A stretch of 64,000 nucleotides of DNA, from NCBI GenBank assembly GCA_022340775.1, contig JAJDNH010000025.1:2007-66006 (forward strand). The letters are read 5' to 3'. The number at the start of each line of letters is the position of its first letter. Position 1 is the stretch's first letter. The stretch comes from Acidobacteriota bacterium. Lineage in GTDB: Bacteria; Acidobacteriota; Thermoanaerobaculia; Thermoanaerobaculales; Sulfomarinibacteraceae. The notes below the pieces were generated by a model. That model did not search any database. It was not told where the DNA came from and was given only the letters and a program-made list of their open reading frames with translations. The position numbers and the translations under genes were made by a program. Below, piece after piece: positions 9,135 to 60,256 of the stretch.

Positions 9135-9186
9135 CCGTGCCGGAGCCGGCTTGCGGGCCGGATGGTGGTTGACTACAGTGACTCTC

Positions 9187-10155: not shown

Positions 10156-10159
10156 GCCC

Positions 10160-11047
10160 TCACGGAGCCCCGCCGCCTCCGGCGACAATCTCGGCCAGGA
10201 ACCGGTAGACCAGCTTGGCGGCGAGAAACTCGGACGCCCATTGACCGGGGGTGGGCAGCAGCTCGACCACGTCGAAGCCGACGACCCTGCGCTGCCGCGC
10301 GACCTCGGTCAGCAGATCCTCGACGTGGTGCCAGAGCAGGCCCCCGGGCTCCGGCGTGCCGGTGGCCGGGACCAGCGACGGATCGAAACCGTCGAGGTCG
10401 ATGGTGACGTAGACATCCTCGCCGAGCAGGGCGAGCGCACGGTCGATCCACGACCTTTCCCGTGGTCCGCAGCGGACGATGTCATGCGCCCACAACACCC
10501 GCGACTCGTCGAGGGCGGCGCGTTCGGAGACGTCGATGGAACGGATCCCGACCTGGACGATCGGCGCTACCTCGCGCGCTCGGGCCATGACGCAGGCGTG
10601 GTTGCAGGCCGAGCCCTCGTAGCTTTCCCGGGTGTCGGCATGGGCGTCGATCTGCAGCACCGACGTACCGGGCACGGCCCTGACGGCGGCGCGGATGGCA
10701 CCGATCGACACCGAGTGCTCGCCGCCCAGGACCACCGGCAGCCGGCCGTCCGCCAGCTGCTCGCCGACGCGCTCCTCGACCAGCTCGGCCAGCACCTCGG
10801 GGCCTTGGCTGCAGACCAGCGGCGGCAGCGTCGCGATCCCGATTCGCCACGGCTCGGTCGCGGTCGGGATGTCGTACAGCTCCATGTTCGCAGAGGCCTC
10901 GAGCAGCGCCGCAGGTCCCTGGTCGGCGCCCTTCTTCCAGGTCGAGGTCAGGTCGTAGGGCACCGGAAGCACCGCAACCGCGGCGGCGTTGAGGTCGACG
11001 GCTACCTCGGGGCCGCCGAACGGGACGAGTCGGGCAGCCGTTTTCAT
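10160..11047 (-). CDS. speB: Agmatinase (ureohydrolase family)
   Basis: Mn-binding ureohydrolase motifs GGEHSVSIG, QIDAHADT and TIDLDGFDP. It is adjacent to arginine decarboxylase. Confidence 0.8.
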   Translation of the reverse strand: MKTAARLVPFGGPEVAVDLNAAAVAVLPVPYDLTSTWKKGADQGPAALLEASANMELYDIPTATEPWRIGIATLPPLVCSQGPEVLAELVEERVGEQLADGRLPVVLGGEHSVSIGAIRAAVRAVPGTSVLQIDAHADTRESYEGSACNHACVMARAREVAPIVQVGIRSIDVSERAALDESRVLWAHDIVRCGPRERSWIDRALALLGEDVYVTIDLDGFDPSLVPATGTPEPGGLLWHHVEDLLTEVARQRRVVGFDVVELLPTPGQWASEFLAAKLVYRFLAEIVAGGGGAP

Positions 11048-11098
11048 GCGGTCTGTCCGGTATTCATGTCCCGATCGGCGGCTGAGGTTCTCATCGGG

Positions 11099-13057
11099 CT
11101 ACTCCAGGTACGTGTATCCGGTGAGGCCGTCGTCGTAGGCGGCGAGCAGCGTACGGCTCTCGGCAGCCGTCATCCTGCCCTCGCGGACCGAACGCTCGCA
11201 GTCCCGGCGTATGGCCTGGTACAGCTGCCGGTGGTCGTACTGAAGGTAGCTCAGAACCTCGTTGACGGTGTCGCCTTCGACCAGCTCTTCGACCGACCAG
11301 GCGCCGTCCTGGTCGACGGTGATGTGAACTAGGTGGGTGTCGCCGAACAGGTTGTGGAGGTCGCCGAGCGTTTCCTGATATGCGCCGACGAGGAAGGCGC
11401 CCAGGTAGTACGGCTCGTCCGGCCGCAGCTCGTGCACCGGCAGCGTCGACGCGACATCCCGCAGATCGACGAAGTGGTCGAGGTGGCCGTCGGAGTCGCA
11501 CGTGATGTCGGCCAAGGTGGCGCGCCGTACGGGCTCCTCGTCGAGGCGCTGGATCGGCAGCACCGGGAACACCTGGTCGATGGCCCACGAGTCCGGCAGC
11601 GACTGGAAGATCGAGAGGTTGCAGTAGTAGGTGTCGGAGATCTTGTGGTCGAGCTCGGCCAGCTCCTCCGGGACCAGTTCGAGATCGCGCGTGAGAGCAT
11701 CGATCTTGAGGCAGACGGTCCAGTACAGGCGATCGACGAGGCCTCGGTGCAAGAGGCTGAGGTGGCCAACGGTGAAAAGGGTCAGGGCCTCCTGGTGGGC
11801 CTGGATGGCGTCGTGATAGCTCTCGAGCAGGGTGTCCGGCTCGACGGACTGGGCGGCGGACACCAGGTCGGAGACCACTCGTGGCAGGTCCTCGTCCTTG
11901 GCGAGCCGAGCCAGCTCGGCCTTGCCGACTTCCCAGCGGTCGATGCACGAGGCGCCCAGGACGTCGAAGACGAGCACGCTATGATGGCAGACCATGGCCC
12001 TGCCGGCCTCGGTGACGATGGTCGGGTGCTCCACGCCCGCGTCGTCGCAGACGCTCTGGAGGCGGTAGACGACGGTCATCGCGTACTCGCTGAGTGTGTA
12101 GTTGGTGGAGAAGTCCCAGTTGGTCTGGCTGCCGTCGTAGTCGACACCGAGACCGCCGCCGACGTCGATGTACTTGAGGTCGGTTCCCATCTTCTGGAGC
12201 TCGACGAAGATCTGGGCGAGCTCGGTGACTCCCGCGTTGATGACCTGAATGTCCGTAATCTGGCTGCCCATGTGGCAGTGGAGCAGCTCGAGGCACTCGA
12301 GCATTCCGGCCTTGCGGAGCCGCGACACGACCTCCAGCACTCCCGGGATGGCGAGCCCGAACTTGGCTTTCTCTCCCGACGACTCATGCCAGCGCCCACT
12401 GCCGGCCCGGCTGAGCTTCACCCGGACGCCGATGCGGGGGCGGATACCGGCTCTGCGTGCCTCGCGGAGGATGACCTCGAGCTCGGACATGTTCTCGATG
12501 ACGGCCACGATGCGGCGGCCGAGCTTGGTTGCCAGCAGGTAGTGGCGGATGTACTTGGCCTCCTTGAAACCGTTGCAGATGATCAGGCGCCGGGGTGCCT
12601 CCGAGGTGAGCCCCATGACCGCCAACAGCTCCGGCTTGGAGCCGACCTCGAGCCCGAAGCCGAGATCCCTCCCCAGGCGCTCGATCTGCTCCACCAGGTA
12701 GCGGTGCTGGTTGACCTTGGTCGGGTAGACGGGGGCGTAGCTGCCGGTGTACCCACACTCCGAGATGGCCTCGGAGAAGGCCTCGGCCATCAGCCGCATC
12801 CGGCGGGCCAGGAGATCACGGAAGCCGATCAGAACCGGAGTACTGATGCCCCGGTCCGCCAGCCCCTGCACGACCTCGTAAAGGTCGACCCGCGGACCAT
12901 CCGGGCCGTGGGGCATGACCAGTATGTGCCCGTTGGCGCCGAGCTCGAAGATATCCTCGCCCCAGCCGTCCACCATGTACAGGGCCGCCGAGTCGGCCGT
13001 TGTCCACTCTTCACTGACCCCCGCGTCCTCAGCTGGGTGCATGCGTTCGTCATCCAT
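11099..13057 (-). CDS. speA: Biosynthetic arginine decarboxylase
   Basis: 652 aa, with SpeA-type N-terminus (YMVDGWGEDIFELGANGHILVMP) and a PLP-fold type III core (YPTKVN, GGGLGVDYDG). Confidence 0.9.
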   Translation of the reverse strand: MDDERMHPAEDAGVSEEWTTADSAALYMVDGWGEDIFELGANGHILVMPHGPDGPRVDLYEVVQGLADRGISTPVLIGFRDLLARRMRLMAEAFSEAISECGYTGSYAPVYPTKVNQHRYLVEQIERLGRDLGFGLEVGSKPELLAVMGLTSEAPRRLIICNGFKEAKYIRHYLLATKLGRRIVAVIENMSELEVILREARRAGIRPRIGVRVKLSRAGSGRWHESSGEKAKFGLAIPGVLEVVSRLRKAGMLECLELLHCHMGSQITDIQVINAGVTELAQIFVELQKMGTDLKYIDVGGGLGVDYDGSQTNWDFSTNYTLSEYAMTVVYRLQSVCDDAGVEHPTIVTEAGRAMVCHHSVLVFDVLGASCIDRWEVGKAELARLAKDEDLPRVVSDLVSAAQSVEPDTLLESYHDAIQAHQEALTLFTVGHLSLLHRGLVDRLYWTVCLKIDALTRDLELVPEELAELDHKISDTYYCNLSIFQSLPDSWAIDQVFPVLPIQRLDEEPVRRATLADITCDSDGHLDHFVDLRDVASTLPVHELRPDEPYYLGAFLVGAYQETLGDLHNLFGDTHLVHITVDQDGAWSVEELVEGDTVNEVLSYLQYDHRQLYQAIRRDCERSVREGRMTAAESRTLLAAYDDGLTGYTYLE

Positions 13058-27557: not shown

Positions 27558-28745
27558 CTACAGGGGGTAGCAGACGACCCTGCTGCCCGCGGTGAGATCG
27601 GCTCCCGGCTCGAGCCGTACGAGAGCGTCCGCGCCGGCCCCCGCGACCAGGTCGTGGGAACCCTCCCAGGTTTTGATGGTGGCTCGAAGGCCCTCCGGCC
27701 CTCCTTGGAGCTGGGCCGGCCGGAGGTGAGTACGTTCCTCGCGATTGGCCGCAGCCGTCGTGAGGGCGGCGATCAAAGGGCGCTCGTCGAATGCCGCCGC
27801 GTCGCCGCTCAGAGCGCGGACGAGCGGCAGAACATAGAGACGCCATCCAACCAAGACCGCCAGCGGGTTGCCGGGGAGCCCTACCAGCCAACCGGCCGGG
27901 AAGCGGGCCACGAGGAGCGGCTTGCCGGGCTTCTGCGAGACCTTGTGGAACACGACGGCGCCGCCGAGCGAGGCGACGGCTTCCGGCACCAGGTCGTGGT
28001 CGCCCACCGAAACCCCGCCGGTCGAGACGACAACGTCGGCGTCGGCAAGAGCTTCAGCGAGGGTCGCCCTGACAGCGGACGCCGAGTCTCCGACCCGCCG
28101 GCAGGATGGGGGTGCCAGACCCTGGCTGCGCGCGAAGGCATCCAGCAGCGGCCAGTTCGCGTCCCGGATCTGGCCGTGCCGGGGCCGTTCGCCTTGGGAC
28201 GCGAGCTCGCTGCCGGTTGAGACAATCGTCAGGCGGGGTCGTCGGATGACGGTCAGGCGCCCCGGTGACCCGGCGGCGAGCAAGGCCATGGTGGTCGGCG
28301 TGACTTCAGCTCCGGCGGGAAGGAGCGTCGTACCCGCCGGGAACACCTCGCCCCGTCGGCGCACGTGGGTCCCCGTGGGGCATTGTGCCAGCAGGACTCG
28401 ACCGTCGGCCCGGGGCTCGGCGAGCTCCTGCTGCACGATCGTATCCGCGCCGGCCGGGAGAGCGGCACCGGTGAAGATGCGTGCTGCGAAACCTTCGGGG
28501 AGCCGCTCCGGAACGGCACCGGCTGGCACCTCGAACGCGACCGGCAGGGGTGTTCCCGCTTCCAAGTCCGCGGCACGGACCGCGTAGCCGTCCATGGCCG
28601 AGACGTCGGCGAAGGGCAGGTCGACGTCAGCGACGGCAGGCGCCGCCAGGCGGCAGCCGAGCGCGGCACGGAGTGGGACCTCGACCGGGTCCAACGGCTC
28701 GACTCGGGCGGCCAGAAGGGAGCGGGCCTCATCAATCGTCAGCAT
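27558..28745 (-). CDS. moeA: Molybdopterin molybdotransferase MoeA
   Basis: VSAMDGYAV, STGSEL, TTGGVSVGDHD and GLPGNPLA. The start is at MLTIDEA (ATG 28745). Confidence 0.85.
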   Translation of the reverse strand: MLTIDEARSLLAARVEPLDPVEVPLRAALGCRLAAPAVADVDLPFADVSAMDGYAVRAADLEAGTPLPVAFEVPAGAVPERLPEGFAARIFTGAALPAGADTIVQQELAEPRADGRVLLAQCPTGTHVRRRGEVFPAGTTLLPAGAEVTPTTMALLAAGSPGRLTVIRRPRLTIVSTGSELASQGERPRHGQIRDANWPLLDAFARSQGLAPPSCRRVGDSASAVRATLAEALADADVVVSTGGVSVGDHDLVPEAVASLGGAVVFHKVSQKPGKPLLVARFPAGWLVGLPGNPLAVLVGWRLYVLPLVRALSGDAAAFDERPLIAALTTAAANREERTHLRPAQLQGGPEGLRATIKTWEGSHDLVAGAGADALVRLEPGADLTAGSRVVCYPL

Positions 28746-28830
28746 CAGCCCAGGATAGCGCAGGCGACGGTCGCCTCGCGGTCTTCCGTATTCCCTGCGG
28801 TTGGGCAGGTGTCTGCCGACTTGTGAATGA

Positions 28831-28859
28831 TTGCGCAAACTGGCCAGCGCTGCTAGAAT
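28831..28859 (+). promoter_or_regulatory. Sigma70-like promoter for the cytochrome gene (TTGCGC-17 nt-TAGAAT)
   Basis: -35 is at 28831-28836 and -10 at 28854-28859 with exact 17-nt spacing, about 50 nt upstream of ATG 28910. Confidence 0.35.
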
Positions 28860-28909
28860 CCGCGTCGCACGCCGCGCGGCGCCGGCCGCAGGCGGGGGGG
28901 ACCGAGAGA

Positions 28910-30373
28910 ATGGCTGACCTATCCAAGCGGCGAGACACTCTGGGCCGGGCTTTCAACTACGCCAACAACCCGACGACGCTGACTGGGATCGTGATCGCGA
29001 CGGTCGCGGCACTGACGATCATCATCTTCATGGTCGCGCAGTTGGCGGGTGCCTTCAAGAATCCGTACATCGGCATCTTCTCCTACCTGGTGCTGCCGGC
29101 GCTGTTCGTGCTCGGCCTGCTGATTATCCCGGTCGGGATGTGGCGTCGCCGCAGGAAGCTCGTGGCCTCGGGAGCGACGGTGGAGGAGCTGTCTCACTAC
29201 CCCCGCCTCGACTTCAACGATCCGCACCTGCGACGCATCGCGACCATCGTCCTCGTGCTGACGGGCGTCAACGCGATTATCCTGGGTTCGACGTCCTACC
29301 TGGCGGTCGATGAGATGGATACGGTCCAGTTCTGCGGTGCGACCTGCCATACCGTGATGCGCCCCGAGTACACCGCATACCAGCAGTCCGCGCACTCGAG
29401 GGTGCGCTGCGTCGAGTGCCACATCGGCCCGGGAGCGTCCTGGTTCGTGCGCTCCAAGCTGGATGGCCTCCGTCAGGTCTGGAAGACCGCGTGGGGGACC
29501 TACGACCGACCGATCGAAACCCCCCTCCACAACCTGCGCCCCGCGCGCGAAACGTGCGAGCAATGTCATTGGCCGGAGAAGCACCACGGCGACAAGCTCG
29601 CAGTTTTCGCTCGTTACGGAACCGACGAGAAGAACACGGCGAGCTACACCGTCATGTTGCTCAAGACCGGTGGCGGCAGCCTCGATCTCGGGAGCCATGG
29701 CGGCATCCACTGGTGGCACATCTACTCCGACAACAAGATCCGCTACGTCTCCACGGATGCGAGACGGCAGAAGATCGGCTGGGTCGAGCTGACCACCCCG
29801 GATGGCAAGGTCCGCACCTACACGCGGCCCGGGGAAAAGGCACCGTCGGCCGAGGAGATCGCGGCCAAGGCGCGTGTCATGGACTGCATCGACTGCCACA
29901 ACCGGCCGACCCATCTGTTCAAACCGCCGGCGAAGGCCCTCGATGACGTGCTGGAGGCGCACAAGGCGTACGCAAGTCTGCCGTTCTACAAGCGGACGGC
30001 GCTGGCGGCGATCAACGACGACTACCCGGATCACGACACCGGCGTGGCACGGGTCCGCCAGGCGATAATCGACTTCTATTCCAAGACCTATCCGGAAGTG
30101 GCGCGGGACCAGGGGAAGATGGTCGCGGCAGCGGCCGACGCCGCCTCCGAGGTGTACGCCCGTTCGGAGTTCCCCGAGATGCACACGACCTGGCGCACGC
30201 ACCCCAACGACCTCGGCCATGACGACTTCCCAGGATGTTGGCGGTGTCACGACGACGAGATGCAAACCGCTGACGGCAAACACACCATTCCGCAGGACTG
30301 TGATACCTGCCACGTCTTCCTCGTGGAGGACAGCCCGACCCCGCCGGTGCTCGCGGATCTGGTCGAGAAGTAG
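28910..30373 (+). CDS. Membrane-anchored multihaem cytochrome c (six CxxCH; NapC/NirT-like N-terminal part)
   Basis: It has three N-terminal TM helices. Haem motifs are CGATCH, CVECH, CEQCH, CIDCH, CWRCH and CDTCH. The start is at MADLSKRR. Confidence 0.85.
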   Translation: MADLSKRRDTLGRAFNYANNPTTLTGIVIATVAALTIIIFMVAQLAGAFKNPYIGIFSYLVLPALFVLGLLIIPVGMWRRRRKLVASGATVEELSHYPRLDFNDPHLRRIATIVLVLTGVNAIILGSTSYLAVDEMDTVQFCGATCHTVMRPEYTAYQQSAHSRVRCVECHIGPGASWFVRSKLDGLRQVWKTAWGTYDRPIETPLHNLRPARETCEQCHWPEKHHGDKLAVFARYGTDEKNTASYTVMLLKTGGGSLDLGSHGGIHWWHIYSDNKIRYVSTDARRQKIGWVELTTPDGKVRTYTRPGEKAPSAEEIAAKARVMDCIDCHNRPTHLFKPPAKALDDVLEAHKAYASLPFYKRTALAAINDDYPDHDTGVARVRQAIIDFYSKTYPEVARDQGKMVAAAADAASEVYARSEFPEMHTTWRTHPNDLGHDDFPGCWRCHDDEMQTADGKHTIPQDCDTCHVFLVEDSPTPPVLADLVEK

Positions 30374-30457
30374 GCCCGCCACCGCGCGACGGCGACCGCT
30401 GCCGGATGGGGCCGTCCGGCCCTTGTGTCCCTGGTGCTCGCGGGCTATATTGGGACC

Positions 30458-31198
30458 ATGCGAGGCCGCAGCGCGTTGCAGGTGGCGATCGTGCTGGCCG
30501 TCGTGGGTATTGCGACGGCGGCTGTGGGCGGGGAGCGGTTCATTCCGGTCGTGGCACAGGTCCAGGGAGCCGAAGGTGCTTACTGGAACACCGAGCTGTG
30601 GGTGTCGAACGTCTCCGACGCGGTTGGAACCTACGTTCTGACCTTCCTGCCCTCCGGCAGCGACAACTCGCGGCTGCTGGCCGAGGAGGTTTCTCCAATC
30701 AGCATCGGTCCCGGCGAGACGGTTCACCTGCGGGATGTGGTTCCCCCGGGGAGTACGGGGGCGCTTCGCTTTGCGGGTTCGGAGGGCGTGGTGGTGCGCT
30801 GCCGAGTCTACAACGCCCGCGGGCAGAGCTCGGTGGGGCAAATGGTGCCGGCGTTGACCCGCGAAGAGATGGTTCGTGCTGGAGGCGAGGGCGTGCTGGT
30901 GCCGCTCGTCCGCAGCTCGTCGTTCCGCACCAACGTCGGGTTCTTCAACCCAGGAGAGAACGCCATCAGGGTCCACGCAGTGCTGGTCGACGCCCACGGG
31001 CAGCGGGTTGGCGCGGCAAGCTATGGTGTCGAGCCGGGCTCGCAGGTGCAGATCAACGATTTTCTGCTTTCCTACCGGGTCAGCAAGGCAGATGGCTACC
31101 AGGTGGTTCTCACCGCCAACGACACCTTTGCGGCGTACGCTACGATCGTCGACAGCAGAAGCGGCGCCGCGGTCTTTGTCCTTCCGGTCGTCCGGTAG
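30458..31198 (+). CDS. Hypothetical secreted protein, beta-rich
   Basis: Signal peptide MRGRSALQVAIVLAVVGIATAAVG, with balanced composition unlike the antisense ORF. No family recognised. Confidence 0.5.
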   Translation: MRGRSALQVAIVLAVVGIATAAVGGERFIPVVAQVQGAEGAYWNTELWVSNVSDAVGTYVLTFLPSGSDNSRLLAEEVSPISIGPGETVHLRDVVPPGSTGALRFAGSEGVVVRCRVYNARGQSSVGQMVPALTREEMVRAGGEGVLVPLVRSSSFRTNVGFFNPGENAIRVHAVLVDAHGQRVGAASYGVEPGSQVQINDFLLSYRVSKADGYQVVLTANDTFAAYATIVDSRSGAAVFVLPVVR

Positions 31199-31321
31199 GT
31201 CGCTCTTCCTCACGGTCGTGACAGCCCGGTCCTCAACAAGGCCAGGGTGAAGGTCTTCTGCGGTATCGTTGAAGAGAATAACTAAATAGTGATATAGTGA
31301 TCGTGACGAAGGGAGGACCGG

Positions 31322-33315: not shown

Positions 33316-33813
33316 ATGGCACGGAAGAAACGCATCTTCGTAGATGCCGATGACAGAGCGTGGTTCGTGTGCCGGGAATGTGGTGCGGTGACGACCCTGC
33401 AGGTTCCAAGGCGGTCGGGCTGGTCGACACCGCTGCGGGAGCGGTTTCGTTGCAGCTGTGGCCGATCCCACATCGTCTATCTCGAGCACCGAGTCTCGAC
33501 CCGCCGGGAGGTCTGCCTGCCCGGGACCTACCGGACGGAAGGAGAGGCCGCTGTGCATCAGATGACCGTGCGCAACCTGTCACGGACCGGCCTTGCCTTC
33601 GACATCGGTGAGGGAGAAAGGGCAGTGCCGGGGACCCGCGCCGTGGTCGAGCTCGAGCTCACCCACGCAGAGCGAACGCGCTTCGTCAAGCAGGTTCTCG
33701 TGAGCTGGGTCAATGGCCGCAGGGTGGGCGCCGAGTTCTGGGTCGGGGAGGGCGAGGATGCATACGATCCGCGTTACGACCTGGCCCTGGCCCAGCTCAC
33801 CGCGACCGAGTAA
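33316..33813 (+). CDS. PilZ domain protein with N-terminal Cys4 zinc-ribbon-like segment
   Basis: The Cys pairs are CRECG...CSCG. PilZ motifs are RVSTR (RxxxR) and VRNLSRTGLAF (N-x-S-x-x-G). Confidence 0.7.
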   Translation: MARKKRIFVDADDRAWFVCRECGAVTTLQVPRRSGWSTPLRERFRCSCGRSHIVYLEHRVSTRREVCLPGTYRTEGEAAVHQMTVRNLSRTGLAFDIGEGERAVPGTRAVVELELTHAERTRFVKQVLVSWVNGRRVGAEFWVGEGEDAYDPRYDLALAQLTATE

Positions 33814-33921
33814 GGTGGCGCCAGGAGCCGGGGGTGGCGGTCGTCGGTCACCGCTGACCATGTACACTGTCTTGACTTGACATGCTCCGTCCGGCAGGAC
33901 GACGAGGGAAGGAGGTAGGGG

Positions 33922-35250
33922 ATGCGAAAGCGGGGATTGCTCGTGGCGGCCGTGGCCGTGGCCGCGACGATTGCGCCGGGGTGCTCCAAGCTCCAGGCGC
34001 CGGCACAGAGTGAGGCCGGCGCGTACAAGGCGGCGAAGGCCGCCTACTACAAAGCCGAGACTTCGCAGCAAAAGGCCAAGATTGGCGAGGACTACCTGGG
34101 GAAGTACCCGGGCGGCCAGCATGCGGCCGGTATGGCCAGCCTCGTGATCGAGTACGAAGGCCATCAGCTGAAAGAGCCTGATCGAGCGTTTGCCACGGTT
34201 GACGGTGCGCTTCAGAAGGTGACGGATCCCGAGGTCCGCTTCGAGGTCGGGATGGAGCTGCTGCCGTTGTCCTATGAGGTCAACAAGCCGATCGACCTCG
34301 ATCAGCTCGTTCAAGGCCTCGAGGGCAAGCGACCTCTGACCTTCAACGAGAACTTGGATGTCATGGAGGCGGCGGCGAAGCACGAGAGGTGGCAGCTGGC
34401 CGAGGCGCGGGCCGACCTGGCGCTGGGCCAGGCGACCCCTGAGACGTACAGGGCCGACCATCCCAACAGCAAGGCGGGCGACGCCGCGATCAAGCGCGCC
34501 GTGAGCCGGCGGTCCACGTATGCCCTCGCCTACAAGGCATGGGCGCTGTTCAACCTGGGACACCAGGACGAGGCCATGAGCCTGTTCAAGACGGCGGACA
34601 AAGATGCCACGTTCAACTACCTCGGTGTCTGCAACACGCCCCTACGGCAGTTCTGGGGCGAGGCCGAGCTGGCGCAGGGCAACTGGGCCCGTGCAAGCGA
34701 GCTGCTGGAGCCATCGGCCCTGTTCGGAGCCAATGACACGGCTCTGGCGGACTTGCGCAAGGCGTACGCCGGTCGTCATGGCTCGGAGGCGGGCTTTGAT
34801 GCCTACCTGTGGAAGGAGCGCGAACGGCGGGCCCGCAAGGTCGATGACTTCAAGCTGCCCGACTACAAGGGCACGAACCACAAGCTTTCATCCCTGGAAG
34901 GGAAGGTGACCTACCTGGCGTTCTGGTTCCCCACCTGAGGCGGTTGCCGCGCGGAGTTGCCGCGCCTGCAGCCGCTTTACGAGAAGTACCGGGACCGCGG
35001 GTTCAGGGTCGTTGCCGTGGAGGCCACGCACAACACCGATGCTGCCAAGAAGTTCATCGCGGAGAAGGGCCTGACGTACAGCTTCCTCGAGGACAATGAC
35101 AACGCCAACGTGGTTCATGGCCTGTTCGGTGTTCACTCGTTTCCGACTGCCTACGTGATCGACCGAGACGGCAAGATCATGTACTACCACCTCGGTTTCG
35201 AGCCGGGAGACGAGAAGACAATCTCCGAGGAAATCGAGACATTGCTGTAG
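33922..35250 (+). CDS. Lipoprotein with helical-repeat N-domain and C-terminal TlpA/ResA-like thioredoxin fold; in-frame TGA (34936-34938) read as selenocysteine in a UxxC motif
   Basis: ORFs 33922..34938 and 34957..35250 share a frame. The junction reads FWFPT-U-GGCRAELPRLQPLYEKYRDRGFRVVAVE and aligns to WCxxCRxE of TlpA-like proteins. A hairpin lies immediately 3' of the UGA. Confidence 0.7.
34940..34975 (+). promoter_or_regulatory. SECIS-like stem-loop immediately downstream of the in-frame UGA
   Basis: An 8-bp lower stem (34940-47 with 34968-75, one G.U) and a 6-bp upper stem (34949-54 with 34960-65) are capped by pentaloop AGUUG. The loop GU lies 21-22 nt from the U of UGA. Confidence 0.55.
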
Positions 35251-35403
35251 CTGCAGCAGGGCCGAAGGCTGGTTTCGGGGTGGATTGACGTTCGACAGGA
35301 ACCGGTGCCGCGGACACGGCCAGGAGGCCTTTGGGTCTCTTTCTTGGCTAGGCGGGCTGGATGCGCAGCACATGCCCCCAGAGGTCGGCTACAATCGCTA
35401 GCC

Positions 35404-37536
35404 ATGAAACGATGGCTCCTCATTGCCGTTGCGGTGATGGCCGTCAGCGGCAGCGCCATGGCGGCCGCTGACGGGCGTCTGATCATCCTCGGTTTCGACG
35501 GCGCCGATGCGCGCCTGACCGAGAAGTGGATGGCCGAAGGCGAGCTGCCCAACCTCGCCAGGCTGGCGGAGGCGGGCGGATACGCGCGGCTGAATCCCAC
35601 GGTTCCAGCTCAGACGCCGGTCTCGTGGTCGACCTTCACGACCGGTCGCGATCCCGGAGGCACCCGGATCTTCGACTTCCTGGTCCGTGACCCAAACACC
35701 TACATGCCGGCGTTCGGGGTCGCACAGGAAACCGAGCGCCAGTTCCTGTGGGGGAAGCACAACCCGGTGGTTCTGCTGGCAATCGCCGCGGTAGCCGGCT
35801 GGCTGCTGCTTTTCGTGCCGCTGAGGCTGTTCAAGCGACGTTGGGCGTGGGCGACGGCGCTGCTGCCGGCTGTCCTGTTGGGAGCCGGCGCCTTCTGGGT
35901 CGGAAGCCACTGGGTCCCGACCAAGATCCCACAGGTCATCAACAACCGTCAGGGCACGCCCTTCTGGCGAGTAGCGGGTGAGCACGGGATCGAGTCAGTG
36001 GTCGGGCGCATCCCTGTGACCTTCCCGGCGCGGCCGTTCCCAAATGGGCACCTGCTGTCCGGCCTGGGCGTGCCCGATGTGCGGGGGCGAATCGGCAGTC
36101 CGTCGCTGTTCACGTCAGATCCCTTCTTCAACCTCGGTTCGGACAACGAGTTCTCCATCGAGGTGGTCCACCTCTCGAAGGCCAGCGGCACTATCCACAC
36201 CAAGATTCCCGGCCCCCCGAACCGGCTCTTCGGATCGCCGCCGGAAATCGATGCCCCCCTGACGCTGACGGTTGCCAAGGACCGCAAAGCCCTCGAGCTC
36301 GAGACCTGTGGCCAACACGTGACCCTGCATCCTGGCGAGTGGAGCCCATGGATGTCGGTAGCGTTCAAGTTCAACCCGCTGCTCGCGGTGCATGCTCTGG
36401 CCCGCTTCCGGTTGCTCCAGCTCAACCCGGAGATCCGCCTCTACCTGACGTCGTTGCAGTTCGATCCGGAACACCTGCCGCCCGGCTTCCTGATCTCGGC
36501 GCCCGCAAACTGGGCGGCCATCCTCAAACGTGAGGTGGGTCCATACAAGACCGCGGGCTGGGCTGTCGACACATGGGGTGTGAGCGAAAGAGTGGTCGAT
36601 GAGGACGTATTTCTCGAGGACGTGAAGAATACCGAGGAGGCGTTCCGCGCACAGCTCAGAAGGTTCCTCGTCGGCAACGAGCGGCTCCTGGTCCAGTACT
36701 TCGAGTTCACCGACCGGGTCGGTCACATCCTCTTCCGTTTCATGGACCCGGGCCATCCGGCGTACGATCCTGCGCGCGCTCCCCGATACCAGAAGGCGTT
36801 CCTCGACACCTACAAGACCATGGACTCGATCGTCGGCGAGGTTGAAAAGAGCCTGCATCCCAATGACGTACTCATCGTGCTGTCGGACCACGGTTTCTCG
36901 AGTTGGCGACGCTCGTTCAACATCAACACCTGGCTGGCCCGCAACGGATACCTGGCACTGACGGGCGGTAAGGGCAAGGTTCAGGACCTGGAGACGCTGT
37001 TCGACCGCGGCCAGTTCTGGCCCAACGTCGATTGGAGCCGCAGCAAGGCCTACTCGCTGGGCCTTGGCGGGCTTTACATCAACCTGAAGGGGCGCGAGGC
37101 GAAGGGTACCGTAGCGGCCGGCAGCGAGTATGAGAACCTCCGCCGGGAGCTGGCTCGGCGCCTGGAGGCGATTGTCGATCCCGAGACCGGGGTTCACCCC
37201 GTGGCCAAGGTCTACATGCGCGAAGAGGTGTACCACACGTTCGATCCGGACATCGTTCCCGACATGATCGTGACCACCGCTCAGAACTACCGCATCTCCT
37301 GGCAGAGCGCGTTGGGCGGGATGCCGTCCGAGCTGTTCATGGACAATGCGCGGCCGTGGAGCGGCGACCACTGCACGATGAACCCGGCCGTCGTGCAGGG
37401 CATCCTGTTCGCCAACCGCCCTCTCGAGCGCCAGCAGGTCGACATGATCGACGTGTACCCTACGGTGTTGGGCCTCCTCAAGCAGGAGCCTCCCGAGAAG
37501 CTGGAGGGAACTCCGTTCATCCGTACCGGCGGCTGA
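35404..37536 (+). CDS. Alkaline-phosphatase superfamily enzyme (type I phosphodiesterase/nucleotide pyrophosphatase-like) with an inserted TM hairpin
   Basis: Signal peptide, then ILGFDGAD..PTVPAQTPVSWSTFTTG (metal/nucleophile Thr region) and LSDHGF. Two hydrophobic helices fall at about aa 125-165 of the mature protein. Confidence 0.7.
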   Translation: MKRWLLIAVAVMAVSGSAMAAADGRLIILGFDGADARLTEKWMAEGELPNLARLAEAGGYARLNPTVPAQTPVSWSTFTTGRDPGGTRIFDFLVRDPNTYMPAFGVAQETERQFLWGKHNPVVLLAIAAVAGWLLLFVPLRLFKRRWAWATALLPAVLLGAGAFWVGSHWVPTKIPQVINNRQGTPFWRVAGEHGIESVVGRIPVTFPARPFPNGHLLSGLGVPDVRGRIGSPSLFTSDPFFNLGSDNEFSIEVVHLSKASGTIHTKIPGPPNRLFGSPPEIDAPLTLTVAKDRKALELETCGQHVTLHPGEWSPWMSVAFKFNPLLAVHALARFRLLQLNPEIRLYLTSLQFDPEHLPPGFLISAPANWAAILKREVGPYKTAGWAVDTWGVSERVVDEDVFLEDVKNTEEAFRAQLRRFLVGNERLLVQYFEFTDRVGHILFRFMDPGHPAYDPARAPRYQKAFLDTYKTMDSIVGEVEKSLHPNDVLIVLSDHGFSSWRRSFNINTWLARNGYLALTGGKGKVQDLETLFDRGQFWPNVDWSRSKAYSLGLGGLYINLKGREAKGTVAAGSEYENLRRELARRLEAIVDPETGVHPVAKVYMREEVYHTFDPDIVPDMIVTTAQNYRISWQSALGGMPSELFMDNARPWSGDHCTMNPAVVQGILFANRPLERQQVDMIDVYPTVLGLLKQEPPEKLEGTPFIRTGG

Positions 37537-54886: not shown

Positions 54887-54961
54887 GGGAGGTTAGCTCA
54901 GCGGCAGAGCACCTGCCTTACACGCAGGGGGTCGTGGGTTCAAATCCCCCACCTCCCACCA
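54887..54961 (+). tRNA. tRNA-Val (anticodon UAC), CCA encoded
   Basis: Cloverleaf folded by hand: acceptor GGGAGGU/ACCUCCC, D-stem GCUC/GAGC, anticodon stem CCUGC/GCAGG with loop CUUACAC, T-arm GUGGG-UUCAAAU-CCCCC (one U.C mismatch). Length 75 nt. Confidence 0.85.
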
Positions 54962-54978
54962 CCTGCCGCGCCTGATGC

Positions 54979-55055
54979 GGGGTCGTAGTTCAGCTGGTTA
55001 GAACGCCGGCCTGTCACGCCGGAGGTCGAGGGTTCGAGTCCCTTCGGCCCCGCCA
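54979..55055 (+). tRNA. tRNA-Asp (anticodon GUC), CCA encoded
   Basis: Acceptor GGGGUCG/CGGCCCC (one U.G), D-stem GUUC/GAAC, anticodon stem CCGGC/GCCGG with loop CUGUCAC, T-arm GAGGG-UUCGAGU-CCCUU. Length 77 nt. Confidence 0.9.
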
Positions 55056-55248: not shown

Positions 55249-57741
55249 CTATACCGTGAGTCCGGGGACCTTCACGATCGGGTGCCCCTCGTCGTCGACC
55301 TCGAAGCCGGTAGGCAACCTGAAGTCGGGATCCAGGGACCGGTAGTAGTCCACGTCGTAGGCCGTGAGCCGTAGCCGAGCTAAGCCGCGGCGGTGACCGT
55401 TGACGATCTCCGCGGTGAGGCCGAAGTCGACCTCGCCGAGGTCGGTGCTGACAATGTAGCGGGGTAGCTCGCGTCCACTGCCGTTCGTTCTCAAGGAGCT
55501 GGCGATGTCCAGTACCCTGGACAAGGGGATCGGTTGCTTGGCGTTCCACCATTTCTGGGGCGGCAACCCGGCCACGTAGAGGTGGTGGACCTCGATGCCG
55601 AGTCGACGGCAGGCCGCCGTGATGTCGGTGATTGTCCGACAGTTGTCGTTGATGGCAGCAAGCAGGGGAATGCTGGCGTGGACGGTGACCCCCCGCCTGC
55701 GGAGCGCCTTGACGAGTCGCTGGTGGTCCGGCTTGAGATCGGTCGGATGGAGGAGGAGAGTCTCGACCTCGAGGCGTGTCGGGTTGACGCTCGACAGCCG
55801 GTTCAAGGAGGTGATCCGGCGCACCATCCCGTCCGAGAAAGCCTCCGGTTCAAAAGCCGCAGCCAGGCTCCGCAGCCGCACGGCGTTGACATGGGGCAAC
55901 GGTTGCAGGCGCTCGACGATCACCCCGACTTTGTACAACGTGTGGGCCACGTCCCGGCGGGAGAAGAGGACGACATCGGTGATGCGGGTGTTGGAGGAGA
56001 TGTACTCGACGGAGCGCGCGATCTCCTCCTCCGCTGCCTCACAGTCGAGCTCCACGCGGGTCATGTGCGGGCGGGACAGTGACCGGAGGCCGGTGTCGAC
56101 GAGGGAAGGCCCCAGCAAGGGGTCGTGTCGAAAGCGCTGCCGGATCTCGTTGAGAGCTTCCTCTCGGGCGTGTTCGGGCAGGGGAGTGGCTTCGGCCAGC
56201 GGGCGCGCCCAGCTGCGTGCCTCGCGTGGCCCTAACAGAAAGGCAGAGTCGCCCACTTTGGCCATCAGCTTCGCATCGAGGGTTCCTTCCCGGTTGGGCC
56301 TTGCTATCCGGGACAGGTCGAGGATCGGGGCGAACGTCTCGAGGTACTCGAGAGAGTAGGGTGTTCGCAGCCACACGAAGCGTTCGTCGTCCTGGTCGAT
56401 TTCTACCGCCCATCCACTGGTGCCCCAGTCGATTTTGCCGATGGAGGTCGCGGTGCACAGATGCGGGACTGCGCGATCCGAGAGGGTTGCCCTCAGGACT
56501 CGGGCGGCCTGGAGGCCGGAGGAAAGCGTTGATGCGTACCTGCGGTTGCCCTGGATCGGGCTGCACGGCATGAAGATGTAGTGCATTTCGGCGCCGGCGC
56601 CCCGCAGCCTACGGTAGAGCTCGGCGAGGGTCTCTCCCAAGTCGTTGCAGCCACCGACATAGGGAGTCTGCACGTAGACGCCGATGCCGTTCCCCACCAA
56701 CTCGGTAATGACCTCGAGGCTTCTGATGGTCACCTCGTCGGGGTGGATGAAATGGGTGGCGATCTCGATCTTCCTGTCTCTCTGGGCCAGCTCGAGCTGC
56801 TTGCGCTTCAGGTAGTCGAGCCAGAAGCCGTCCCGGCCGGTGAACAGGGCAGGGTGGTAGGAGAGCGCCCGGGTGGCGACCCGCAGCGTCTCCACGTGGG
56901 GGACCTTGGCGAGGCCGTCGATGGCTTGAGTCAGGGTAGGCCGGTTCATGAAAGGATCGCCCCCGGTGAGGACGACCTCCTTGATCTCGGGGCAACTCTT
57001 GATGTACGCCACTCCCAGGTCGACGTGCTTCTGAGTCGGCGCTCTCTGGGTCCGACACTCCTTGTGCTTGCGGAAGCAGAACCGGCAGAAGACGGGACAC
57101 ACCATGTTGAGGATGAAGATCACCCGGTTGCGGTACATCTGCTCGATGACCCCGCGGTGGAACTGGCCGACCCAGGTGTGGACGAGGCCCTCGCGGTCCA
57201 ACTCGTCCGCGAAAGGCTGGTACTGGTAGGCGACGGCGGGCGAAAGCCGCATCTGGCGAATGGTGTGGGCCGAGAAGCGAGCTGGGTAAACCGCAAGCAC
57301 CTCTCTCAGGGCGTCACGTTCCTCCTCGGGGACCTTCCGGTTGGTGAGCTTCTCGAGACGGCTGAGAGTCTTGACATCGATGATCGCGTCTCCGGGAATC
57401 AGCACTTCCAGGATAGCGAGCAGGAGAGCGTAGGGGATCCGGACCCCGTCCACCGCGACCTGTGCGGCTACCTGTCCGTTGGCCAGTGCGAGCTGCGCCA
57501 GTACCTCTTCGAAGAATCCCTGTGCGTCGTCCTCGTAACCAGCCGCAGTGAGCAGCCTCAGGAGGCGGCTTTCGCCGTCCCCCTCGCCGGTCACGGTACA
57601 AAAGTCCGTGTCGACCAGCGGCTCCGCACCGTACAGCTCAAGGAACTCGACTGTGGCCCGTTCGAGTGCCTTGAGGGGAACCTGCAGCTTCTCCTTGGAG
57701 GGAAGAAACTCGACTGAAAGATCTGCCTGCGGTGTCTGCAC
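55249..57741 (-). CDS. Large KamA-family radical SAM protein (aminomutase-like) with a second, degenerate KamA-like module
   Basis: CPVFCRFC (C215/C219/C222), LTGGDP, THFIHPDE and SIGKIDW are in the first module. The second module (about aa 560-775) parallels it but lacks the Cys triad, GGDP and the Lys. GTG start with an AGGAGG SD. Confidence 0.8.
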   Translation of the reverse strand: MQTPQADLSVEFLPSKEKLQVPLKALERATVEFLELYGAEPLVDTDFCTVTGEGDGESRLLRLLTAAGYEDDAQGFFEEVLAQLALANGQVAAQVAVDGVRIPYALLLAILEVLIPGDAIIDVKTLSRLEKLTNRKVPEEERDALREVLAVYPARFSAHTIRQMRLSPAVAYQYQPFADELDREGLVHTWVGQFHRGVIEQMYRNRVIFILNMVCPVFCRFCFRKHKECRTQRAPTQKHVDLGVAYIKSCPEIKEVVLTGGDPFMNRPTLTQAIDGLAKVPHVETLRVATRALSYHPALFTGRDGFWLDYLKRKQLELAQRDRKIEIATHFIHPDEVTIRSLEVITELVGNGIGVYVQTPYVGGCNDLGETLAELYRRLRGAGAEMHYIFMPCSPIQGNRRYASTLSSGLQAARVLRATLSDRAVPHLCTATSIGKIDWGTSGWAVEIDQDDERFVWLRTPYSLEYLETFAPILDLSRIARPNREGTLDAKLMAKVGDSAFLLGPREARSWARPLAEATPLPEHAREEALNEIRQRFRHDPLLGPSLVDTGLRSLSRPHMTRVELDCEAAEEEIARSVEYISSNTRITDVVLFSRRDVAHTLYKVGVIVERLQPLPHVNAVRLRSLAAAFEPEAFSDGMVRRITSLNRLSSVNPTRLEVETLLLHPTDLKPDHQRLVKALRRRGVTVHASIPLLAAINDNCRTITDITAACRRLGIEVHHLYVAGLPPQKWWNAKQPIPLSRVLDIASSLRTNGSGRELPRYIVSTDLGEVDFGLTAEIVNGHRRGLARLRLTAYDVDYYRSLDPDFRLPTGFEVDDEGHPIVKVPGLTV

Positions 57742-57821
57742 CCGGCCACCTCCTAACGATCCAAGTCGAGACTGGAGAGGAGCGACCTGCCCTGCTCATC
57801 GCGACCGTCGATGCGAAGCCG

Positions 57822-58700
57822 TCACCGCAGCGTCTTGCACCACACGTGCATGTTCTCGAAGCGGCCTGCGATGTGGCAGTTTTTGACCAACGTGCCGGTC
57901 CACTCGTAGCCACGGTTGTAGAACACGCGGTTCATGCCGGCCGAACGGGCCCTGGCGATGGTGTACAGGTAACGAATGTCCCGCTCCGCCATGTCCTCCT
58001 CGAGGGCTGCGAGGGTGTGCTGCGCCAGTCCCAGCCCTCTCCGATCCGGAAGCGTGGCGAAATCGGTCATTTCCGCGTTGTGGTGTGCACGAATGGTGTC
58101 TGCTGATGCGGCGGCGATCAGGGATCCTCCGTCGTCCCGAACGATCCTATAGACCACGTCGGACAGCATGGTCTCGATCAGGAAGCCGGGGTCCGTTATC
58201 GGGAACGGATAGCTCTTGAAGACCGTGTCGTAGAGCGCGGCGAGCTCGTCGGCGTCTTCCGGCCGTGCCACCCGCATCAGGTAGCCGTCGGGGAGCGCCG
58301 GCACGGAGGGATCTGCAGGGCGGGAGCGGATCTTGCGGAGGATTGATTCCTCCTCTTCCGCAGCCGGGCGCTGCCGACGGTTCTGATCGAGAAACCTCGA
58401 CATCACCACGGCGGGCTTCCCGTTGAAGTAGCCGGAGATCGTGGCTTCGGCCTGCATGCCGGCAGCCTCGAGAGCGGCTCGATCCTCGACCGGCGCCTTC
58501 ACGAAGATCTTGCCGAGCTTCAGGTCAAGCGCCTTCTCGGCGAGCTCTTCGACCATGCCGATGAGGTTGGATCCCTCATAGTCGAGAATGTGGACCCTGC
58601 GGTTCAGTCCGCTGAAGACGGCTCGGGCTCTGTAGCCCTGTCCGTCGACAGAGAGTCGGGTATCGATCTCGGAACCCGCGGTGATTCGGACTGCGGTCAT
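57822..58700 (-). CDS. ablB: GNAT acetyltransferase, AblB-like (putative beta-lysine N6-acetyltransferase)
   Basis: A two-part architecture typical of AblB (N-terminal regulatory-like half, C-terminal GNAT with ATLPDRRGLGLAQHTL). The start overlaps the ablA stop (ATGA). Confidence 0.7.
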   Translation of the reverse strand: MTAVRITAGSEIDTRLSVDGQGYRARAVFSGLNRRVHILDYEGSNLIGMVEELAEKALDLKLGKIFVKAPVEDRAALEAAGMQAEATISGYFNGKPAVVMSRFLDQNRRQRPAAEEEESILRKIRSRPADPSVPALPDGYLMRVARPEDADELAALYDTVFKSYPFPITDPGFLIETMLSDVVYRIVRDDGGSLIAAASADTIRAHHNAEMTDFATLPDRRGLGLAQHTLAALEEDMAERDIRYLYTIARARSAGMNRVFYNRGYEWTGTLVKNCHIAGRFENMHVWCKTLR

Positions 58701-60037
58701 GCGCTCCTCCCTGTCGGTTCCTCCTCCTCGCCTTCCTCCTCTGGCGACAGGGCAGATGGAATGAGTGCGATGTTACCTGGGTCATCGTCGAATAGGCCGG
58801 CCACACCGACCGTTTCCAGTCCCTCGCGGAGGACCTCGCGGCAGTGCGAGCAGGGGTGCCCCTCCGAGCACATCCCGATGTAGTCCCTGGGCTCCTCGTA
58901 GGCGACGATACGGCCTTCGAAGTTGCGGAGGATCACCTTGTGCTCGTGCTGCGAGACCACGTAGTTGGGATGCACGGGGATCTTGCCGCCGCCACCGGGG
59001 GCATCCACGACGAAGGTGGGTACGGCGAGGCCCGAGATGTGGCCGCGCAGGTGCTCCATGATCTCGATTCCCTTGGCGACAGTGGTCCGAAAGTGCATGA
59101 GACCCTCGGCGAGGTCGCACTGGTAGATGTAGTACGGACGAATACGGTTGACGGTGAGCTTGTGCATCAGCTTGCGCATCAGTGCCCAGCAGTCGTTGAC
59201 GCTTCGCAGCAACACGGTCTGGTTCCCGAGGGGGATGCCGGCGTCGGCCAGGAGTGCCACTGCGGCCTCGGACTCGGAAGTGAACTCCTTGGGTACGTTG
59301 AAGTGCGTGTTGAGATAGATGGGGTGGTAGCGTTTCAAGGTCGCTGCCAGGTTCGGCGTGATCCGCTGGGGCATGGTCACCGGCAGCCGCGAGCCGATGC
59401 GGATAATCTCGACCGACGGCGCTTCCGCACGCAAGCGCTTCAGGATGTGCTCGAGGCGTTCGTCGGACAGCAGCAGGGGATCGCCGCCCGAGAGGAGCAC
59501 GTCCCTGATTTCCGTGTGCTCGTTCAGGTAGGCGATTCCGGCATCCAGCTGGGCATCCGTGATCGCAGCCGGCCGCTCGCCGACCTTGCGCTTTCGGGTG
59601 CAGTGCCGGCACAGCATGGCGCACTCATGCACCACGACCCACAGCACGCGGTCCGGGTAGCGATGAGTCATGCCCGGAGCCACCGAGTCTCCCTCCTCGT
59701 TGAGGGGGTCCTCGATGTCAAAGTCGCTCAGCGTCAGCTCGCCCTCACCGGGAATCGCCTGCAGCCGGATCGGGCACTCGGGGTCGTCGGGGTCGATCAG
59801 CGAGGCGTAGTAAGGCGGAACCGCGAATCGGAAGCGATCGAGGGCGCGCTCGATCGTACGTTGCTCGCGGGGCGTCATGGGCAGGATGCGGGCGAGCTCC
59901 TCGGCGGTAGTGATGCGGTGGCGCATCTGCCAGTGCCAGTCGCGCCACTCCTCGTTGGGAACGTCCCGCCAGATGGAGCGCTCCTTGTAGGAAGGCTGAG
60001 CCCGGGACGCCGAACGCTCGGTGACTGGGATCGTCAT
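58697..60037 (-). CDS. ablA: Lysine 2,3-aminomutase (KamA/AblA)
   Basis: CAMLCRHCTRK (CxxxCxxC), LSGGDPL, NTHFNVPKE, GNQTVLLRSVND, YYIYQCD and VVDAPGGGGKIP (PLP Lys). The start is ATG 60037 with an AAGGA SD. Confidence 0.9.
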   Translation of the reverse strand: MTIPVTERSASRAQPSYKERSIWRDVPNEEWRDWHWQMRHRITTAEELARILPMTPREQRTIERALDRFRFAVPPYYASLIDPDDPECPIRLQAIPGEGELTLSDFDIEDPLNEEGDSVAPGMTHRYPDRVLWVVVHECAMLCRHCTRKRKVGERPAAITDAQLDAGIAYLNEHTEIRDVLLSGGDPLLLSDERLEHILKRLRAEAPSVEIIRIGSRLPVTMPQRITPNLAATLKRYHPIYLNTHFNVPKEFTSESEAAVALLADAGIPLGNQTVLLRSVNDCWALMRKLMHKLTVNRIRPYYIYQCDLAEGLMHFRTTVAKGIEIMEHLRGHISGLAVPTFVVDAPGGGGKIPVHPNYVVSQHEHKVILRNFEGRIVAYEEPRDYIGMCSEGHPCSHCREVLREGLETVGVAGLFDDDPGNIALIPSALSPEEEGEEEEPTGRSA

Positions 60038-60256
60038 GGTTTTTCCTTTCGGGCACGCCAAACGGCTAGCGGGTCTCGCCTGGGGAGATGCAGCCGCACT
60101 GGAGGACGAATGGGGGGAGCATTACAGACACCAATTGCATTGCATGCTAAATATTATCACACAGAACGCTTCGGGGCAAGAGATGAGAAGAGACCAGGGG
60201 GCCGGGGTCGAGGGTGAGGAGCGGGGCCGAATCCCCGAGCGCTCGAAGGCTGATCT

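Follow-up and report, generated by a model that had tools for sequence, protein, structure and literature searches.

Does the TGA at positions 34936-34938 of the stretch of DNA analysed here end a gene, or does it specify an amino acid within one? The stretch, referred to below as the window, comprises 64,000 nucleotides of contig JAJDNH010000025.1 from an Acidobacteriota bacterium. On its + strand, the open reading frame (ORF) 33922..34938 (338 aa) is closed by this TGA, and the ORF 34957..35250 resumes in the same frame 18 nt on. That the two are parted only by the TGA and 18 nt had been stated in a preliminary description of the locus, and it can be read directly from the sequence. The read-through junction is ...GKVTYLAFWFPT-*-GGCRAELPRLQPLYEKYRDRGFRVVAVE..., or, at greater length, ...KVTYLAFWFPT-[TGA]-GGCRAELPRLQPLYEKYRDRGF..., and the frame totals 442 codons with TAG 35248-35250 as its end. 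Our analyses indicate that the two ORFs are very probably one gene for an exported, selenocysteine (Sec, U)-containing thiol-disulfide oxidoreductase, with a UGA followed by a recoding hairpin. Taking the parts of this reading separately, the UGA is almost certainly recoded so that the two ORFs yield one protein, and the residue inserted is in all likelihood Sec.

The predicted coding sequence of the complete selenoprotein, 33922..35250 (+), consists of 442 codons (338 + Sec + 103) plus the TAG, and a Shine-Dalgarno sequence, GGAGG at ~33909-33913 (+), lies ahead of the start at 33922. The in-frame TGA (34936..34938, +) is the predicted Sec codon for residue 339, at the nucleophilic position of a CxxC motif. 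The putative resolving Cys342 (TGC, 34945..34947, +) falls within the stretch that databases treat as intergenic. A promoter and terminator scan found nothing.

The TGA codon across homologues

Using the read-through protein as a database query, we recovered 12 homologues of its N-terminal part (the N-domain), 327-338 aa in length and 100% to 37% identical. All 12 end at the identical alignment position, and on each of their contigs a 'redoxin' fragment of 97-102 aa begins 12-18 nt past the stop of a gene of ~338 aa. Further loci were gathered with the N-domain alignment only, 51 from species-representative genomes and 80 from metagenomes. Since the search patterns sit upstream of the TGA codon, they introduce no bias on which codon is found there. 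The source genomes are mostly metagenome-assembled genomes (MAGs) labelled Thermoanaerobaculia, Ca. Sulfomarinibacteraceae or Acidobacteriota, along with a few from Krumholzibacteriia, Latescibacteria, Gemmatimonadota and Glassbacteria, and the metagenome loci are mostly from sediment.

Codon 339 is TGA in 139 of 139 informative loci, which span 100% to ~23% identity, and in all 114 distinct junction sequences; TGC, TGT, TAA and TAG occur at this codon in none of the 139 junction-containing loci. Past the TGA, the frame of these loci reads x-x-C-R-[A/V]-E-L-P-R-L-Q. The part that follows U is 103-108 aa long in nearly all of them, and the architecture is common to all. The preliminary description had named orthologues in which the two parts are always separately encoded as an outcome that would refute the selenoprotein reading. 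None were seen; the TGA stands at the same codon everywhere, and active-site residues are conserved within the supposed gap. Over the six codons annotated as non-coding (+1 to +6, G-G-C-R-V/A-E), the amino acids are conserved and the synonymous codons vary. Gly uses four codons, and Cys342 is encoded by TGC in 89 and by TGT in 25 of the 114 distinct sequences. An invariant Cys that is written both ways points to selection at the protein level.

Among full-length Cys forms the closest is P0014, a Pyrinomonadaceae protein in which TPR repeats are combined with a redoxin domain; it aligns over 242 residues with 28% identity (E = 1e-18). In the BLASTP alignment, FWFPT-X-GGCRAELPRLQ stands against VWGTW-C-SPCVAEMPQLQ. 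The first Cys of WCSPC faces the UGA, in agreement with the earlier proposal that the UGA occupies the place of the nucleophilic Cys of a CxxC motif.

With the redoxin domain as the query, the best 120 matches (100-54% identity) were all fragments of 95-122 aa beginning past the TGA, indicating that public data split the family systematically. The fragments are named 'peroxiredoxin', 'CcmG/DsbE' or 'TlpA family', and the N-terminal parts 'hypothetical protein' or 'TPR repeat protein'. The post-TGA fragment alone, the counterpart of window positions 34957-35250, makes up at least 120 database clusters (P0021-P0140). The whole family is systematically mis-annotated: for at least 130 of its clusters, databases keep one record called 'hypothetical protein' and a second, truncated one called 'peroxiredoxin', 'CcmG' or 'TlpA'. 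A family-specific model that has U at position 339 would mend these split records, and it would also mark Thermoanaerobaculia and Ca. Sulfomarinibacteraceae (abundant seafloor Acidobacteriota) as users of selenium.

The hairpin downstream of the TGA

RNA folding was performed on positions 34930-34990. The segment 34936-34979 folds at -31.1 kcal/mol, compared with -20.0 +/- 3.0 kcal/mol for dinucleotide shuffles (z = -3.7), a stability matched by 1 of 200 shuffles. The full hairpin of the window (34936..34979, +) has a lower 12-bp stem, 34936-34947 paired with 34968-34979, which is lineage-specific, and a conserved core of 17 nt (34949..34965, +) that resembles a selenocysteine insertion sequence (SECIS). 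In the core, which begins 10 nt after the UGA, the 6-bp upper stem GCGCGG/CCGCGC (34949-34954 with 34960-34965) is closed by the apical loop AGUUG (34955-34959, +). An interrupted hairpin of 14 bp at 34940-34975 had been described here. A hairpin is indeed present, with other dimensions: the minimum free energy structure has 18 bp and begins at the UGA itself. The position given earlier for the G-U of the loop, nt 21-22 from the U of the UGA, is borne out in the fold.

In a set of 42 diverse junction sequences, every one is paired throughout the upper 6-bp helix, where both sides have changed at three of the six pairs (23 cells). Covariation over the whole structure scored 0.229 compared with 0.129 +/- 0.009 for shuffles, a value reached by none of 500 shuffles. 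As a control, sliding the 3' partner lowered pairing from 81% to 31-52%. Among the 114 distinct sequences, the third position of the Pro codon tracks the opposite codon without exception: GUG (Val) is paired with CCA in 102 sequences, GCG (Ala) with CCG in nine and GAG (Glu) with CCU in three. Val inside the stem is always GUG and Glu always GAG; synonymous variation is suppressed there only and is free outside the stem. Five of six divergent relatives, each folded alone, retain the stem and a 5-nt loop at +14 to +30. Because the lower stem of the window is not conserved, the value of -31 kcal/mol overstates the functional element. With the lower stem variable and the upper one kept, the functional core would be the stem-loop of 17 nt starting 10 nt past the UGA.

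Published descriptions of the bacterial SECIS (bSECIS; PMC13188914 section 5) require an apical loop of 3-9 nt (here 5 nt), an upper stem of 4-16 bp (here 6 bp), a G in the first two loop positions that is usually followed by G or U (here A-G-U), and a UGA-to-loop spacing of 16-37 nt (here 16 nt, the lower limit). The element agrees with all four, and together with the covariation of its stem this supports the SECIS-like hairpin proposed in the preliminary description. When the pattern of a TGA, 7-25 nt, a 6-bp stem and an AGTTN loop was searched for in 2 x 1.35 Mb (both strands), it was found 140 times at the junction and 4 times elsewhere, which shows its specificity.

In E. coli fdhF, the minimal element is a 17-nt core located ~10-11 nt after the UGA. 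Similar to the fdhF-type bSECIS (Zhang and Gladyshev model, per PMC13188914), the element described here is a coding-region hairpin 3' of the UGA, with a small apical loop that contains G-U and a 17-nt core ~10-11 nt past the UGA. In contrast to fdhF, it has no sequence similarity, no bulged U is evident in its upper stem and its spacing is at the 16-nt minimum. On these comparative grounds, the hairpin is a well-supported candidate for a clean natural minimal bacterial SECIS. As the 17-nt element covaries perfectly yet overlaps codons of the active-site helix, it should be useful for studying SelB recognition outside Proteobacteria/Firmicutes.

More distant relatives are present in MAGs of Gemmatimonadota, Glassbacteria and Acidobacteria gp6 (L055-L061, e.g. 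L057:10208, L059:10145, L060:10088). They have longer, different N-terminal regions and the motifs U-P-S-C, U-P-G-C or U-A-A-C, and they retain the TGA, the 6-bp stem and an AGUUN loop, with the stem fully compensated (e.g. GUGAGG/CCUCAC). Since these relatives share the element and not the N-domain, the recoding element appears to predate the TPR architecture of the window's clade.

Protein architecture and known relatives

With U scored as C, the read-through protein matches Pfam AhpC-TSA (PF00578; 73.2 bits, 2.3e-20; cutoff 26) and Redoxin (PF08534; 70.8 bits, 1.3e-19; cutoff 26.6). The match is a single stretch, residues 306-433, that runs across the TGA. Among NCBIfam models, the best scores go to thiol-disulfide oxidoreductases of the ResA, TlpA and DsbE types (residues 301-425; ResA subfamily, 83.9 bits), and UGGC occupies the WCxxC position of the redoxin/ResA profiles. 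The periplasmic thioredoxin-fold reductase pattern recognized earlier is thereby confirmed, as the Pfam and the NCBIfam profiles both align over the TGA. They delimit a TlpA/ResA-like redoxin (thioredoxin-fold) domain at residues ~301-433 (34822..35220, +), with the predicted active site U339-G-G-C342.

The N-terminus, MRKRGLLVAAVAVAATIAPGC, is basic at first, then hydrophobic, and ends in a lipobox-like A-P-G-C. A signal peptide is predicted at 33922..33984 (+), with Cys21 (TGC 33982-33984) as the lipidated residue. Cys21 is invariant across the 12-sequence N-domain alignment (A1). The same arrangement, a basic start followed by a hydrophobic segment and [A/L/V/M]-x-[G/A/S]-C, recurs in 102 of the 117 full-length members of the family. 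These features suggest that the protein is exported and lipid-anchored, consistent with the 442-aa lipoprotein that had been predicted. A Pfam scan of residues 31-304 gave no match. An AlphaFold2 model of this N-domain, built from A1 (mean pLDDT 85.9, pTM 0.78), consists of 15 paired helices, and in a Foldseek comparison with the PDB every top match was a TPR protein (TM 0.3-0.4). The helical-repeat N-domain postulated earlier can now be described as a TPR-like all-helical repeat domain (residues ~31-304; 34012..34833, +). Taken together, the protein is probably a lipoprotein in which a TPR-like scaffold precedes a C-terminal Sec-redoxin domain.

Catalogues have listed UxxC selenoproteins of the Prx-like, redoxin and TlpA-like kinds since 2004-2008, and this gene adds a member to them. 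Among those catalogued are the 'Prx-like thiol:disulfide oxidoreductase'/'Prx-like 1' and 'Prx-like 3', the latter also called 'Redoxin family protein' (PMC13188914 Table 1, PMC2398784 Table 2), and other established families are the 'thiol-disulfide isomerase-like protein' (PMC1088965) and the 'UGC-containing TlpA family' (PMC13188914 Table 1). The gene falls under the definition of Prx-like 1/Prx-like 3 (PF00578 or PF08534 plus UxxC), a placement by definition only. Shared with these families are the AhpC-TSA/Redoxin domain, Sec as the first residue of UxxC, a coding-region SECIS hairpin right after the UGA and an occurrence mainly in marine and anaerobic bacteria. What differs here is the ~300-residue TPR-like N-domain, the predicted lipoprotein signal, the motif F-W-F-P-T-U-G-G-C-R, the distribution largely among Thermoanaerobaculia-like Acidobacteriota and the apparent use of Sec by all ~140 sequences seen. 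Fusions of Prx-like 3 to unknown domains have already been noted in GOS (PMC2398784). The catalogue references WP_010940744.1, HEU0032618.1 and MGB1650493.1 were not among the 120 best redoxin-domain matches. A true peroxiredoxin, as the JGI name of the fragment implies, was considered and rejected. The protein lacks the peroxidatic motif P-x-x-x-T-x-x-C/U (PMC13188914) and has a thioredoxin-type UxxC instead; the residues upstream of U339, L-A-F-W-F-P-T, place Thr at -1 and Pro at -2, compared with the -3 and -7 expected.

The motif F-W-x-x-x-[C/U]-x-x-C-R-x-E-x-P is common to this protein, to the thiol-disulfide isomerase-like protein of the Sargasso Sea (cd02966, PMC1088965) and to Cys-type TlpA, ResA and CcmG(DsbE). 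The predicted lipid anchor would place the protein outside the cytoplasm, where TlpA/ResA/CcmG also reside. Unlike them, the protein would have Sec in place of Cys, it has a TPR domain and a lipobox anchor where they have a single transmembrane helix, and its gene stands outside any cytochrome-maturation or CcdA/DsbD gene context. Scores against the NCBIfam equivalog cutoffs were 83.9/170 for ResA, 48.6/230 for TlpA, 45.5/123 for DsbE and 42.8/210 for StoA; with every score well under its cutoff, we rejected orthology to ResA, TlpA, DsbE/CcmG or StoA. We also rejected NF041054, the 'ResA-like WAxxUGC motif-containing protein', which is a UGC-containing TlpA family selenoprotein (55.2 bits; cutoff 300). 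Like the protein described here, its members have a ResA-like fold, an extended N-terminal part and Sec in the region of the active site. They differ in that their motif is U-G-C, with Sec and Cys one residue apart, whereas the motif here is W-F-P-T-U-G-G-C. None of the NCBIfam models reaches its cutoff on the read-through protein.

Based on these comparisons, the gene family is arguably a distinct subfamily of known selenoproteins. It could also count as a Sec-obligate exported TPR-TlpA subfamily with a lineage-specific minimal SECIS, one that would be absent from current selenoprotein catalogues and NCBIfam models. The location predicted for the protein is extracytoplasmic, and there the chemistry of the Se-S bond may be of importance in sulfidic sediments. 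How Sec decoding and TlpA-type reductases are understood is left unchanged.

Decoding, alternative readings and genomic context

The contig of one homologue (L005, 57% identity) also carries a PrdB/GrdB-family gene, L005:16478-17320 (-), that is split by an in-frame TGA. Its junction reads …DLALLVPA-U-PLC-NRAGG…, with the motif U-P-L-C. The NCBIfam PrdB model aligns through the TGA with 124.7 bits, and the match to Pfam GRDB stops 3 residues short of it. The hairpin that follows resembles a bSECIS less clearly (z -1.7). From its sequence, this gene is a probable second selenoprotein gene on a homologue-bearing contig. PrdB belongs to the classical UxxC selenoproteins (PMC2398784 Table 2; PMC1088965), and Sec users have been documented among Acidobacteriota (PMC12013277, PMC13582414). 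Our literature search found no link of Thermoanaerobaculia or Sulfomarinibacter to selenocysteine.

Several results weigh against a Sec-containing oxidoreductase. No tRNA-Sec was found by ARAGORN in the window and 141 loci; the only tRNAs of the window are tRNA-Val(TAC) and tRNA-Asp(GTC), at 54887-55055. A screen for selA, selB and selD over the window and ~1.35 Mb of related loci, using SelA, SelB and SelD motifs, returned only BipA, which is the sole translational GTPase in the window, and chance matches. Rfam scans with gathering and with permissive thresholds returned tRNAs and chance miRNA-like matches, and no SECIS model. The lower stem of the hairpin is paired in only 72% of cases family-wide and is missing from AT-rich relatives. 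Within the family we saw no Cys orthologue, and the closest Cys form shares only 28% identity. Close Cys homologues exist for most selenoprotein families, and a family that lacks them is unusual. Finally, clustering of flanking ORFs revealed no CcdA/DsbD or cytochrome c maturation gene nearby. As to the machinery, missing Sec genes in a 64-kb window and related loci are expected by chance and have no bearing on the rest of the genome.

The failure to detect canonical Sec machinery in the window or related loci could also be taken to favor insertion of another residue at the UGA, such as Cys, by a selC* tRNA-Cys or an acidobacterial allo-tRNA, with the hairpin serving the same purpose and the product an ordinary CxxC redoxin. 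Mukai et al. (PMC5389517) reported tRNA(Sec)-like tRNA-Cys that may be opal suppressors, as well as allo-tRNAs of Acidobacteria that may suppress nonsense codons. However, the hairpin fits canonical SelB-type bSECIS geometry, the UGA signature recurs, on a related contig, in a PrdB-like gene of a classical selenoprotein family, and neither an allo-tRNA nor a selC* gene was seen in the window and related loci. A strict TGA, never TGC, over ~140 loci would also be hard to explain were the product simply Cys. We regard this explanation as improbable; if it were true, Acidobacteriota would have, in this ~140-member family, the first natural client of SelB-dependent insertion of a residue other than Sec. 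It is still less probable that the locus holds two separate genes, a 338-aa TPR lipoprotein and a small redoxin made by re-initiation, which the hairpin couples or attenuates. Every public annotation reads the locus in this way, and a TTG or other start is available 12-18 nt downstream. Nevertheless, a 97-aa product without strand beta1 and the U/CxxC motif would be a non-functional thioredoxin fold, and the G-G-C-R-V/A-E between the TGA and the called start is under protein-level selection. Moreover, the redoxin profile starts at residue 301-306 and already takes in the last 35 residues of the N-terminal ORF; TGA, and never TAA or TAG, is the stop; and P0014, the Cys-form homologue, carries both parts in one fused protein.

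The remaining two explanations have a negligible chance of being correct. A lone in-frame stop, one mutation away from the Cys codon TGC, is what would be seen if the gene of a CxxC redoxin lipoprotein had become a pseudogene through a nonsense mutation. The preliminary description had named close relatives with TGC, alongside other disabling lesions in this copy, as the outcome that would point to such a pseudogene. That outcome did not occur: all 139 loci, from several phyla, have TGA, other lesions are absent and purifying selection acts on both sides. With the TGA universal and no relative with TGC or lesions here, a pseudogene is excluded. A genetic code in which UGA means Trp or Gly would also give a continuous ORF. 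TGA is an ordinary stop in this lineage, however, terminating 33 of the 51 roughly called window genes and 31 of 135 family genes (74 others end in TAG and 30 in TAA), which excludes a reassigned code. In addition, this is the only same-frame ORF pair of the window with coding signal on both sides and a redox motif around the TGA; no convincing case of a second TGA-split same-frame pair with coding signal on both sides was found there.

For the Sec-containing oxidoreductase, we propose the following course of events. Translation would begin at 33922, and at the UGA (34936-34938) the stem-loop 10 nt downstream would recruit SelB-GTP-Sec-tRNA(Sec), SelB-dependent insertion in the source organism being inferred. 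Sec would be inserted as residue 339, and translation would continue to the TAG at 35248-35250 to give a 442-residue product. As the analogy to TlpA, ResA and CcmG suggests, a substrate disulfide would then be attacked by the selenolate, and Cys342 would resolve the mixed selenenylsulfide, leaving an Se-S bond. A membrane electron shuttle of the CcdA/DsbD type might re-reduce this bond; as no conserved redox partner gene lies nearby, the proposed electron pathway rests purely on analogy. The TPR domain probably binds or selects the protein substrate. The decoding part of this scheme is strongly supported by the comparative evidence, and the periplasm-facing location, redox cycle, reductant and substrate are suggested by related systems.

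The conserved neighbors of the gene reflect housekeeping synteny (ArfB-like, MtnA, Era, CorC, a phytase-like lipoprotein and a glutaredoxin-like protein). In 64 loci, including L024:11808-12257 and L013-L052, an RF-1-domain protein (ArfB-type, GGQ) of ~149 aa lies directly downstream on the same strand. This neighbor belongs to the main Sulfomarinibacteraceae-like clade; the window has a PF01663 phosphodiesterase (35305-37536) instead. The proximity of the ArfB-type gene to the selenoprotein gene is probably plain synteny. Opposite the selenoprotein gene lie two antisense ORFs, 33580-34563 (-, 327 aa) and 34888-35373 (-, 161 aa). They were not picked by codon-position GC, have no homologue evidence and are typical spurious ORFs of a 66% GC genome.

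Elsewhere in the window, a NapC/NirT-type multihaem cytochrome (28481-30373, +, 630 aa) is overlapped by a 764-aa ORF (28919-31213, -) that has no Pfam match and is probably spurious. Positions 9151-13057 hold a polyamine-type cluster with a deoxyhypusine-synthase-family gene (9151-10155; PF01916, 145 bits) and a biosynthetic arginine decarboxylase (11099-13057, -); between them, ORF 10160-11047 (-) reads like the agmatinase/arginase family, by sequence look only. Two neighboring lysine-2,3-aminomutase-like radical-SAM genes, with a 292-aa ORF between them, are found at 55249-60061 (-). The one at 58697-60061 (454 aa) has a LAM_C domain, and the one at 55249-57741 is unusually long (830 aa) and has a weak Radical_SAM match only. 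At 1359-3116 (+), an unusual fusion joins an HdrD/GlpC-like Fe-S and CCG cysteine-rich domain to a C-terminal response-regulator receiver (Fer4_8, CCG, Response_reg), and the ORF that follows it, 3145-4593, reads like a sensor histidine kinase, again by sequence look only.

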